Shown here piece after piece: positions 34,503 through 36,033 of a stretch of DNA of 52,376 nt. Location: NCBI GenBank assembly GCA_019689585.1, contig JADGHG010000003.1, forward strand, positions 1-52,376. The letters run 5' to 3'. The position numbers and the translations under genes were made by a program. Below the pieces are notes generated by a model, which had not been told where the DNA came from, made no database searches, and was given only the letters and a program-made list of their open reading frames with translations. This stretch comes from Clostridia bacterium (lineage in GTDB: Bacteria; Bacillota; Sulfobacillia; RBS10-35; JADGHG01). Position 1 is the first letter of the stretch. Each line of letters opens with the position of its first letter.

Positions 34503-35144
34503 ATGAGCGTGTGGCTGCGCGGAACTGCCGTACTGCTTTTGGTGGCCGCGATCGTCACCATCTCCAGTTCTGCCATTGCGGGGGCCACGAACCAGGGCCA
34601 GTGGAGGCCCGCCTCAGCGACAGAGGTCCTAGGGGTGCTCGGCGAACGGCACCTGGGGGCCGCCGGACTGCTGACCCAGGGCGCCGTGACGTACACCGCC
34701 ACGGATGGCACCCTCTCCACGTTCGTCCCCGCCGCCACGCAGACGCCGGAGTTCCTGGGCATCCTCATCGTCACGACCCCGGAGGGCCAGACCTTGGTCT
34801 ATCGGGCGTCGATGACGGTGAGTGCCCGGGGATCGACGGTCACGCTTGAGGGAACCCGCGGGGAGCCGACCGTGGTTCAGGACGTGGGGCACGTGTCCCT
34901 GCCCAAGCCGGCGAACCGAAGTGCCACCGGCGCAAGCGGTGGCGGGGTGTCCGCCGACAGTTACGTGGGTGGACTGATCTGTGGTGTAGTGTGCCCGGTC
35001 GTCGTGTGGTATACGTTAAACCCGGTAACTCTGGAGGGACAGTTAGCAGCTGGCGTCCTCTGCTACGTCATCTGCACGCCTCCCCCTGGAGGGGGACCGG
35101 TGGCACCTGGCACGGGCGGATGCACCAATGGATGCGCGAACTAG
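34503..35144 (+). CDS. Secreted pre-pro-protein with a C-terminal Cys-rich hydrophobic core (bacteriocin/toxin-like)
   Basis: Sec signal (AIA-G), about 120-aa pro-region, linker ending VSAD, core with three CxxxC motifs (CGVVC, CYVIC, CTNGC). Confidence 0.75.
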   Translation: MSVWLRGTAVLLLVAAIVTISSSAIAGATNQGQWRPASATEVLGVLGERHLGAAGLLTQGAVTYTATDGTLSTFVPAATQTPEFLGILIVTTPEGQTLVYRASMTVSARGSTVTLEGTRGEPTVVQDVGHVSLPKPANRSATGASGGGVSADSYVGGLICGVVCPVVVWYTLNPVTLEGQLAAGVLCYVICTPPPGGGPVAPGTGGCTNGCAN

Positions 35145-35156
35145 AAGGGGTTGACG

Positions 35157-35378
35157 ATGGCACCGATACGGAGCCGCAAGGAACACCTAGAACTGCTGGG
35201 GCGGCTCTACTTCGGGTGGAGTGTGACTGAGGCCCTGGTCTTGTGGAGCCACGTGCCGCTCATCGGGAAGATCGGCCTCGTCCTCTTGGTCGGGTCCGGG
35301 TACTTCGTGGCCCGGAAATACGGTCGGATGAAGGGCTTTCTGGCCGGATTCCGTCAGGACCAGGGCAAGACTGGCTGA
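35157..35378 (+). CDS. Small 2-TM membrane protein, copy 1 (candidate immunity protein)
   Basis: 73 aa, directly after the precursor stop; VPLIGK and FVARKYG motifs. Confidence 0.75.
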   Translation: MAPIRSRKEHLELLGRLYFGWSVTEALVLWSHVPLIGKIGLVLLVGSGYFVARKYGRMKGFLAGFRQDQGKTG

Positions 35379-35413
35379 GTGCCGGTGCCGCCCCGTGGCT
35401 GGGCGGCACGGGC
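35377..35413. terminator. GC-rich hairpin, copy 1
   Basis: GCCGGTGCCGCCC / GGGCGGCACGGGC stem; 19 nt identical to 35997-36015. Confidence 0.6.
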
Positions 35414-35419
35414 TACCTC

Positions 35420-35554
35420 GGCCGTGGTGGTGGGAGGAGGCGGCCGAACCCCGTAGCCGCCATAGTCATGTGCTACGTGCTTTGCGCCCCTGTCGACGGC
35501 GGCGCACCGCCAACACCGGGTACAGGCGGATGCACGAATGGATGCGCGAATTAA
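35420..35554 (+). pseudogene. Orphan C-terminal cassette of the precursor
   Basis: NPVAAIVMCYVLCAPVDGGAPPTPGTGGCTNGCAN*; last 12 aa identical to the full precursor; no signal peptide or pro-region. Confidence 0.8.
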
Positions 35555-35565
35555 GGGGTTTGAAA

Positions 35566-35787
35566 ATGGTCCCCATACGGAGTTGGAAGGAGTTCCTTCA
35601 AATCCTCGCGCGGTTCTTCGCAGCGTGGAGCGTCTTGCTGGCCCTGATGTCGTGGCGCTACGTACCGCTCATCGGGAAGGTCGCCTTGGTGCTCCTGATC
35701 TGCGTCGCGTGGTTCGTCGCTCGGAAGTACGGGGGCATGAAGGGCTTCCTGGCCGAGTTCCGCGAGGACCGAGGCAAGGATGTCTGA
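35566..35787 (+). CDS. Small 2-TM membrane protein, copy 2 (candidate orphan immunity protein)
   Basis: 73 aa, 44/73 identical to copy 1 by manual alignment. Confidence 0.8.
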   Translation: MVPIRSWKEFLQILARFFAAWSVLLALMSWRYVPLIGKVALVLLICVAWFVARKYGGMKGFLAEFREDRGKDV

Positions 35788-35791
35788 CACG

Positions 35792-35983
35792 AGTTGAAAG
35801 GAACTGCTAGAAAGGCTAGCGCGGTACTGCTGGGGGTTCAGCCTGTGTGTGGCCTTCAGCTCATGGCACTACGTACCGCTCATTGGGAAGATCGGCCTCG
35901 TACTCCTGGTCGAGGTCGGGTGCTTCGCGGCCGGAAAGTACGGCCGGGCGAGGTGGTTCAACGAGGACCTAGGCGACGGCTGA
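35792..35983 (+). pseudogene. Small membrane protein, copy 3 (degenerate)
   Basis: S*KELLERLARYCWGF...WHYVPLIGKIGLVLLV...KYG; no start codon and a TGA at 35795. Confidence 0.75.
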
Positions 35984-35996
35984 ATTAAGGCCGGTC

Positions 35997-36033
35997 GAGT
36001 GCCGGTGCCGCCCCGCCACAGGGCGGCACCGGC
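35997..36033. terminator. GC-rich hairpin, copy 2 (between convergent units)
   Basis: Perfect 13-bp stem GCCGGTGCCGCCC / GGGCGGCACCGGC. Confidence 0.65.

Follow-up and report, generated by a model that had tools for sequence, protein, structure and literature searches.

Among described systems, those closest in kind to the locus reported here appear, by analogy, to be SdpC/SDP with SdpI and its paralogue YitM/YIT with YitQ, the cannibalism and biofilm toxins of Bacillus subtilis. The locus is an array at positions 34503-36033 of a 52,376-nt stretch of DNA (contig JADGHG010000003.1 of the Clostridia bacterium assembly GCA_019689585.1), which we call the window. It comprises a gene for a 213-residue precursor with a hydrophobic, Cys-rich C-terminal core, the orphan tail of a second precursor allele and three tandem copies of a gene for a 73-residue membrane protein, the last of them decayed. 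We put at about 0.45 the probability that the island around this array is a bacteriocin-like peptide-toxin module, in which a Sec-exported pro-toxin working in the manner of SdpC/YitM, PAMP or halocin C8 is paired with cognate small membrane immunity proteins and accompanied by relics of older modules. The observation itself is real and richer than first described, and the toxin/immunity reading is plausible.

In the sections of PMC6818787 that treat them, SdpC and YitM carry a Sec signal and share their N-terminal three quarters, whereas their hydrophobic C termini are group-specific and are processed to the toxin. The membrane antitoxins are encoded nearby and are mutually unrelated, some strains have immunity genes only, and yitPOM lies on an insertion peculiar to certain strains, where a small regulator accompanies it (from the same parts of PMC6818787). 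Halocin C8 is, in the outline given by a preprint (10.64898/2026.07.27.741052), the C-terminal 76-residue peptide of ProC8, a precursor with a HalI immunity domain. PamA of Propionibacterium jensenii has a signal and a pro-protein of ~200 residues, from which proteases free a C-terminal peptide of ~6.4 kDa (PAMP) extracellularly, and a haloarchaeal protease-precursor system is a further precedent, going by the portions of PMC5756557 and PMC12893001 devoted to them. The plant alpha-hairpinins, as summarized in part of PMC11591084, follow the pattern C-X3-C-Xn-C-X3-C in a helix-loop-helix with two inter-helix disulfides, and 6-Cys variants are known.

Like SdpC and YitM, the array precursor has a secretion signal, a C-terminal hydrophobic domain and a linked membrane gene, here 12 nt downstream and with a putative antitoxin role. 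The array differs from SdpC in a core built of two helices and six Cys, the C-terminal loop of which is conserved, and in an immunity candidate of just 73 residues that stands in three tandem copies; there is no sequence similarity. In the host genome analysed (1.86 Mb, 95% complete, 74.1% GC), the toxin_SdpC model (TIGR04032) had no match at E<=10, nor did it match the precursor at that threshold, and it was found in 0 of 401 sampled genomes of the phylum at E<=1e-5; SdpA and SdpB (TIGR04034 and TIGR04033) had no match in the genome at E<=1.

With halocin C8, as the preprint presents it, the array shares a secreted precursor, an N-terminal part of similar size and a hydrophobic, Cys-rich C-terminal peptide, the cleavage of which is predicted here. 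It differs in its Sec-type rather than Tat signal, in a putative immunity that comes from a separate membrane gene rather than from the N-domain, and in its 6 Cys. The resemblance to halocin C8-type precursors that had been pointed out from the sequence does not extend to membership of that family: the best match of halocin_C8_dom (TIGR04449) in the genome, at 34959-35012, reached 10.1 bits (E 2.7) against a cut-off of 24, and a search with the precursor gave no match to this model at E<=10. HalC8 has 10 Cys. For the HalI-like N-domain (Hac8_like_N/Gpos_C8-like), the precursor had no Pfam match at E<=10 in a copy of Pfam that lacks PF27906. PAMP resembles the array precursor in its architecture, a likeness drawn from its description and not from a comparison with the PAMP sequence; none of the searches pointed to a sequence relation, and the available part of that description names no linked immunity gene.

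A precursor with a six-Cys core and a coupled membrane gene

The precursor gene (34503-35144, plus strand) is an intact open reading frame (ORF) with GGAAGGGAG, which resembles a ribosome-binding site (RBS), 8 nt 5' of its ATG. Its anatomy is as the original prediction had it, with a signal, a pro-region, a VSAD motif and a hydrophobic core with three CxxxC pairs. All four parts lie on the plus strand: a hydrophobic N-terminal signal ending AIA|GA (residues 1-29, 34503-34589); an N-domain that appears beta-rich from its sequence and from a low-confidence AlphaFold 2 (AF2) model (residues 30-135, 34590-34907); a Pro/Ser/Gly linker (residues 136-152, 34908-34958); and the hydrophobic core (residues 153-213, 34959-35141), in which the CxxxC pairs are formed by Cys 160/164, 187/191 and 207/211. 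VSAD occupies residues 150-153, and the hydrophobic windows on the Kyte-Doolittle scale are residues 1-28 and 153-173.

The AF2 model, built on a 4-row alignment (mean predicted local distance difference test score, pLDDT, 46), places a helix at residues 3-29, six strands within 62-128 and helices at 151-172 and 177-191, with a pLDDT below 55 for the two core helices. The best hit of a wide VIA-align search, at Z 5.3, consisted of generic beta-meander and helical rows, and no fold could be assigned. A complex prediction for the core (residues 150-213) with the first membrane protein scored 0.00, which is no answer and evidence neither way. The core alone scored 0.76 in the ESM Atlas against GGGtGRT clusters, a match that we judged meaningless.

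The Cys logic of the alpha-hairpinins recurs in the core by analogy only, as a CxxxC on each of two predicted antiparallel helices. In the array the loop is X22 (C164 to C187), outside the X4-20 used for prediction, and the core is uncharged, membrane-like, bacterial and part of a larger precursor.

Conservation of this core is established by a single homologue, P0004, a protein of 211 residues that is 45% identical to the precursor over its full length and retains all six Cys, the NPVT loop and the GC-x-NGCA end. Divided by part, identity is 47% in the N-domain, 46% in the core, 29% in the linker and 31% in the signal. The core is therefore not hypervariable, and the variable cores expected among relatives were not seen in this comparison. 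VSAD is not conserved in P0004.

The first membrane gene (copy 1; 35157-35378, plus strand) begins 12 nt after the precursor stop, has GAAGGGG before its ATG and encodes a 73-residue putative cognate immunity protein with basic N and C termini and a conserved VPLIGK loop. It had been described as a protein with two transmembrane (TM) segments. That it is a 73-residue membrane protein stands; the count of two is likely but not certain, since Kyte-Doolittle windows exceed 1.6 for both hydrophobic segments of copy 2 but, in copy 1, for the second alone.

Relics of earlier modules

Downstream of copy 1 lie the remains of a second precursor allele and two further membrane genes. The orphan tail (35453-35554, plus strand) matches the last 33 residues of the precursor at 70% identity (E 8.2e-9) and corresponds to the last 33 codons of a diverged allele, holding helix 2, a Gly/Pro linker and GCTNGCAN. 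Homology to the precursor starts abruptly at 35454. This element had been taken for a start-less second C terminus with an identical tail. The final 12 residues are indeed identical, but an in-frame ATG is present at 35468 and opens a 28-residue peptide ending at 35554 that has helix 2 and the Cys loop and lacks the signal and first helix. Its translation seems unlikely, as the nearest and only Shine-Dalgarno-like run, GGGAGGAGG at 35432-35440, is 28 nt upstream.

Copy 2 (35566-35787, plus strand) is intact, has AAGGGG before its ATG and shares 44 of 73 residues with copy 1 (62% by alignment, E 1.7e-24); it may be the orphaned immunity gene that belonged to the lost allele. Orphan immunity genes are well known for bacteriocins. 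Copy 3 (35780-35983, plus strand) is a pseudogene with one TGA (E 4e-13). Far from being start-less, it has an ATG at 35780 that overlaps the copy 2 stop, followed by an in-frame TGA at codon 6 (35795-35797; TGG in copy 2), an early stop and a Glu in the second hydrophobic helix. The decayed third paralogue, the second 73-residue copy and two hairpins had all been reported from the sequence and are all present. Hairpin 1 (35381-35413, plus strand) directly follows the copy 1 stop, with a 13-bp GC stem, no T run and -30.2 kcal/mol (z -2.05); hairpin 2 (36001-36033, plus strand; -32 kcal/mol, z -2.98) is the same GC-rich element and closes the array. Both lie within a 51-nt repeat, D6, that is 80% identical between its copies, and their 14-nt core motif occurs only at these two sites in the genome. 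The hairpins lack a T run, so that a terminator role is one that we infer rather than observe.

Paralogy within the array far exceeds what chance would produce (E 1.7e-24, 4e-13 and 8e-9), and purifying selection is evident in its history. Between the orphan tail and the precursor there are 15.3 synonymous and 14.7 non-synonymous changes (dS 1.06, dN 0.24, omega 0.22; Fisher p 0.0014), so most of this divergence arose while both were working genes, and the stump is a relic of a once-complete second allele rather than random junk. The final 11 codons differ by 4 synonymous changes and by 0 non-synonymous ones, which argues for constraint on the protein and not for recent gene conversion. Copies 1 and 2 are likewise constrained (omega 0.42, p 0.005). 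Comparisons with copy 3 give an omega of 0.57-0.73, not significantly below 1, and this copy looks relaxed and decaying.

The longest identical DNA runs are 14 nt between the tails and 15 nt between the membrane units, too short for efficient homologous exchange and thus a poor substrate for cassette swapping. From its sequence, we read the array as the product of successive displacement or truncation of modules with retention of partner genes, and not as a working cassette-swap system. This bears on the comparison with CDI, Rhs and MafB loci, whose defining features include a conserved delivery domain that bears a variable C-terminal (CT) region, orphan CTs that are complete, and homology sufficient for recombination. 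The likeness lies in the order of elements (a toxin-like gene, a putative immunity gene, the 3' fragment of another allele and its own putative immunity gene) and in strain-variable, horizontally acquired content. The array differs in having a plain Sec signal, with neither a large conserved delivery domain nor a demarcation motif, in an orphan of only 33 codons (helix 2 and tail) rather than a whole toxin domain, and in a core no more variable than the N-domain. The toxin/immunity family of the original prediction is thus kept as plausible on the strength of the Sec-type signal, the conserved Cys-rich core, the coupled membrane gene, the extra copies and the loci described below, whereas its polymorphic-toxin framing and its swappable cores are not: the orphan is not a whole core, its identical runs with the expressed gene reach 14 nt at most and recent gene conversion is not seen.

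Two truncated relatives with different membrane partners

The same genome contains two further loci of the family, which we call B and C, the array being locus A. Paralogue B (23331-23744, plus strand; 137 residues) sits 11 kb upstream of the array and matches a profile of the precursor and P0004 at E 1.4e-8 (6e-52 with A4, which contains paralogue B). It is 5'-truncated and lacks a signal, its homology beginning near precursor residue 71. Paralogue C, found by tblastn, lies on contig C169 (812 to 135, minus strand). Both are without the signal and the first ~70 residues, of which no remnant was found upstream in any frame, and both keep the second half of the N-domain, the linker and the Cys-rich hydrophobic core. 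They have diverged about equally in the N-domain part and the core. The core of B has six Cys arranged as CX3C, CX5C and CX3C with a decayed tail; that of C has eight Cys, including a GC-T-x-GCAN tail, plus ten extra residues. A tblastn match on contig C60 proved to be a Gly/Thr/Pro-rich, lipoprotein-like ORF and was rejected as compositional.

Each of the three core types is directly followed by a membrane ORF, and the three ORFs are unrelated: the 73-residue protein at A, an ORF with 3-4 TM segments at B, and a membrane-like ORF, cut by the contig end, at C. The ORF at B (23713-24057, plus strand), recognized by its hydrophobic segments, overlaps the end of paralogue B; it has no Pfam, PHROG or PADLOC match and no similarity to the 73-residue protein, and would be a different putative immunity protein. 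An immunity role is putative for all three. That truncated B and C each carry a different core and a different membrane partner strengthens the toxin/immunity reading.

All three loci are poor in GC (0.58-0.67, with B at 0.58 and C at 0.60) relative to the genome (0.741), and GC at third codon positions (GC3) is 0.52-0.59 in B and C, B being at 0.52. Locus B is on a patch of 57-67% GC just 3' of an ABC-2 transporter pair (20792-23132), and locus C is directly downstream of tRNA-Ala(CGC) (C169, 901-976). Convergent to locus B in the same low-GC patch is a winged-helix frame (24093-24524, minus strand; ArsR-like by eye) that runs into a 33-residue N-terminal fragment of DUF952 (Pfam E 3.6e-6), which looks like a fused or broken gene.

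An exceptionally rare family

In a phmmer search against 1.84 billion cluster representatives, only three proteins were found: the precursor itself, P0004 and P0005. The last, a 4,700-residue repeat protein (E 3.6e-13), aligned by BLASTP through six repeats at about 30% identity, without matching any of the six Cys; we put the similarity down to chance, amplified by the repeats, and rejected it. A word search of 5.8 billion clusters returned the precursor itself and P0004 only and, for the 73-residue protein, the genome's own copies only. Among the 60 nearest genomes there was no credible relative, the weak partial matches (best non-own E 0.0016 and 0.029) not having been inspected singly. A profile search of 210 genomes of the class matched its own genome alone (1 of 210). 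Two matches in the 401 sampled genomes of the phylum, L045 and L046, were rejected on inspection: one is a membrane protein of MgtC type, and the other lies antisense to a PstC-like gene. Alignments of the precursor and of the membrane protein found nothing in JGI metagenome contigs, GTDB genome contigs or viral contigs, and no relative was found among plasmids or PDB sequences.

Curated libraries were equally silent. The precursor had nothing above noise in Pfam, NCBIfam, PHROGs or PADLOC. The 73-residue protein had 0 Pfam matches at E<=10, only noise in NCBIfam (YneF at E 0.016, far below the cut-off) and none in PADLOC, and so matched no immunity or defence model in these libraries or in PHROGs, in which copy 1 had no match at E<=1 and copy 2 and the precursor had noise-level matches only (E 0.23 and 0.39). 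The array family as a whole matched no curated library and no named protein, the literature search having been aimed at analogous systems only. By ESM-Atlas features, the nearest named cluster is 'putative immunity protein/bacteriocin' (rank 4, score 0.85), with Gpos_C8-like on 17% of its members; with a score of only 0.85, it serves as no more than a lead. Sequence and profile searches with the precursor and the 73-residue protein, the latter kind suggested at the outset, extended the family to P0004 and loci B and C, and gave neither a known family nor a VPLIGK-type relative outside the genome itself. Two clusters among about 15 billion predicted proteins make the family nearly absent from public data and, if the toxin reading holds, a pocket of antagonism biology that is invisible to homology-based mining.

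A putative pro-toxin and its rivals

If the array encodes a toxin with its immunity, it might work as follows; export, cleavage, disulfide formation, toxicity and protection are all steps that we infer. The 213-residue product would be exported by Sec and its signal cut after AIA. The beta-rich N-domain may hold the very hydrophobic C terminus in a soluble or inactive state until proteolysis within the Pro/Ser/Gly linker, which is poorly conserved, frees a peptide of ~60 residues. This peptide is predicted to form a helix-loop-helix hairpin that the CxxxC on each helix could staple with two disulfides, while the third CxxxC would close a small C-terminal loop (GC-x-NGCA). The uncharged, hydrophobic hairpin could then insert into the membranes of competitors, with the presumably co-transcribed 73-residue membrane protein protecting the producer. 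The genome search found no Omp85, suggesting that the envelope is of the monoderm type, and there a Sec-exported peptide would reach the medium. Copy 2 would be an orphan immunity gene that has outlasted its own precursor, of which 33 codons are left, and copy 3 a decaying one.

Several features favour this account: the hydrophobic N terminus with its AxA site, the weakly conserved linker, and a core with conserved Cys, NPVT and GC-x-NGCA; a membrane gene with its own RBS so close to the precursor, and broken precursors adjoining intact partners; and the foreign-like GC, variable site occupancy and extremely patchy distribution, with one homologue and none in the other 209 genomes of the class. 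Other findings weigh against it. There is no sequence link to a known bacteriocin, toxin or immunity family, and neither a processing protease nor a dedicated exporter is present in the island. The N-domain is as conserved as the core, as would also be expected if the N-domain had its own function. Basic residues are absent from the core, whose net charge is about -1, unlike most cationic bacteriocins. Searches of the genome, which is 95% complete, found neither DsbA-like Thioredoxin_4 nor VKOR, and disulfide formation by an enzyme is thus without support. Full-length family members number two, too few for a test of diversifying selection, and the pairing with a membrane gene is drawn from loci A, B and C.

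Some of these points would be accommodated by a membrane-anchored surface protein, in which the beta-rich N-domain works outside the cell, the C-terminal helices form a hairpin anchor, the 73-residue protein is a membrane partner or assembly factor, and the repeats result from tandem duplication and decay. Equal conservation of N-domain and core, the uncharged and strongly hydrophobic core, the absence of a protease, an exporter and a known toxin domain, and the failure to find a disulfide-forming enzyme all speak for such a protein. As an anchor, however, the hairpin would be odd: the hydrophobic part of helix 2 spans only ~12-16 residues, and the inter-helix loop, NPVTLEGQ, lacks a basic residue that could keep it on the cytoplasmic side. 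A mere anchor would not usually show such strict retention of the GC-x-NGCA end and all Cys at 45% overall identity, and across four synonymous changes in the orphan, and truncated copies with different intact membrane partners at three low-GC loci are left unexplained. We regard the anchor as unlikely, yet as the most probable of the rivals. If it were true, the array would merely be a rare surface protein with duplicated partners and would matter little.

The remaining alternatives appear far less probable. The array could be the remnant of a mobile-element conflict or lysis module, with the 73-residue proteins as holin-like or exclusion proteins and the precursor as an accessory envelope protein. 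Its island location, the neighbouring ribbon-helix-helix-like ORF that matches a phage family (phrog_3887, E 4e-4) and the place of locus C next to a tRNA fit this idea, as do the size and charge pattern of the 73-residue proteins, which we take to resemble those of class II holins. Yet the array proteins have only noise or nothing in PHROGs and no PADLOC match, no relative is on viral contigs or plasmids, and no endolysin, integrase or other phage gene was found in the 2-kb island; we consider such a remnant improbable. Decaying foreign DNA without a current function, in which the intact ORFs are simply the youngest copies en route to loss, seems to us slightly more improbable still. Two of the five family elements at locus A are broken, B and C are both 5'-truncated and their GC3 is low, but three genes (the precursor, copy 1 and copy 2) are intact and have an RBS, omega values are well under 1 and a homologue at 45% identity keeps the full length and all motifs. 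Least probable of all is a metal- or redox-handling membrane system, in which the CxxxC pairs bind a thiophilic metal or shuttle electrons with the small membrane protein as partner. Six conserved Cys as i/i+4 pairs on hydrophobic helices would suit it, and the missing DsbA/VKOR leaves free thiols possible. Against this, no match to metal-resistance or redox families was obtained, the island has no metal-resistance genes or sensors, decay of paralogues and switching of partners are untypical of such systems, and the Sec signal puts the Cys outside the cell.

Returning to the pro-toxin with membrane immunity, the locus is best filed as a new sequence family of a known kind, with a secreted pro-toxin, membrane immunity and orphan immunity relics. 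In its fullest form, which we hold to be somewhat more doubtful than probable, the proposal is of an undescribed Sec-exported pro-toxin family whose uncharged helical hairpin, stapled by twin CxxxC pairs and ending in a Cys loop, would be a bacterial counterpart of the plant alpha-hairpinin design and would be neutralized by the 73-residue membrane protein. The genome would then be an archive of three module generations (a live pair; an orphan immunity gene with a 33-codon toxin stump; and a dead immunity gene; with two truncated toxin/partner pairs elsewhere), recording how one toxin allele after another was displaced in an uncultured, high-GC and apparently monoderm lineage from hot or decaying-wood habitats. 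If the pro-toxin reading holds, the array would provide a new scaffold for bacteriocins, in which a hydrophobic helical hairpin, stapled by disulfides, is released from a secreted pro-protein and the immunity protein is unusually small, all in a lineage without cultured members. It would also be a compact natural record of the replacement of toxin/immunity modules, in which immunity genes outlive toxins, as in strains with SdpI only and orphan immunity genes elsewhere.

Genomic setting of the island

Locus A is a low-GC island (34100-36040, no strand assigned), with 60-68% GC in 300-nt windows against 75-80% in its flanks. On the left it borders a full hutI-like amidohydrolase gene (start 34058, minus strand; Pfam Amidohydro), and on the right it meets duplicated fragments of hutI and of a PxpB/C-like carboxyltransferase gene. 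The first of these fragments (36028-36127, minus strand), which marks the right border, duplicates the last ~100 nt of the carboxyltransferase gene and is 73% identical to 36569-36668 (repeat D4). The second (36133-36568, minus strand) is a truncated, frame-broken duplicate of the hutI-like 5' end and its upstream region; it aligns locally, with indels, to 33653-34099 at 75-84% identity (repeats D2/D3, 84%/75%) and spans the first ~395 nt of hutI. The full carboxyltransferase gene follows (36591-38336, minus strand; Pfam CT_C_D and CT_A_B). There are thus two copies of a ~540-bp segment (the ~100-nt carboxyltransferase end, the intergenic region and the ~395-nt hutI start) at 73-84% identity, one of which is split by the island. 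These border duplicates would fit tandem duplication of the gene junction followed by insertion, and equally the single-crossover integration of a circularized foreign fragment that carried the island.

Upstream of the precursor is a ribbon-helix-helix-like ORF (34272-34448, plus strand), a possible regulator that matches the phrog_3887 transcriptional regulator family and, weakly, an Arc-like repressor; it had no Pfam match at E<=0.01. Its frame (34232-34451) contains no ATG, GTG or TTG before the predicted beta strand, and the ATG at 34232 is in another frame, so it may be a frameshifted regulator gene or use a non-canonical start. A promoter scan found no promoter, and the sole terminator-like site was on the minus strand (35820-35806). 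No RNA-type run was listed as containing pieces of the island.

Logan contigs provide a view of the site in the same samples. Three runs have contig breaks at 35265-35301, just 3' of the VPLIGK-coding repeat (~35255-35272) common to the paralogues, which we attribute to an assembly-graph effect of this repeat and not to a biological junction. In run X5, 35455-36242 is without cover at depths of 2-11, from which no conclusion was drawn. Contigs of 4 runs, which are blind to rare rearrangements, contain no joints inside the array. A 1,881-nt contig from a diverged, co-occurring relative, whose aligned pieces differ from the window in about 9-17% of letters, joins 34109 to 36605 through 511 unmatched letters, against 2,495 in the window (runs X1 and X2, 2 of 4 compared). 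The content of the site in this relative differs from the 2.5 kb of the window and is shorter. A second study also had a run, with the label hot springs, that contained pieces identical to the island.

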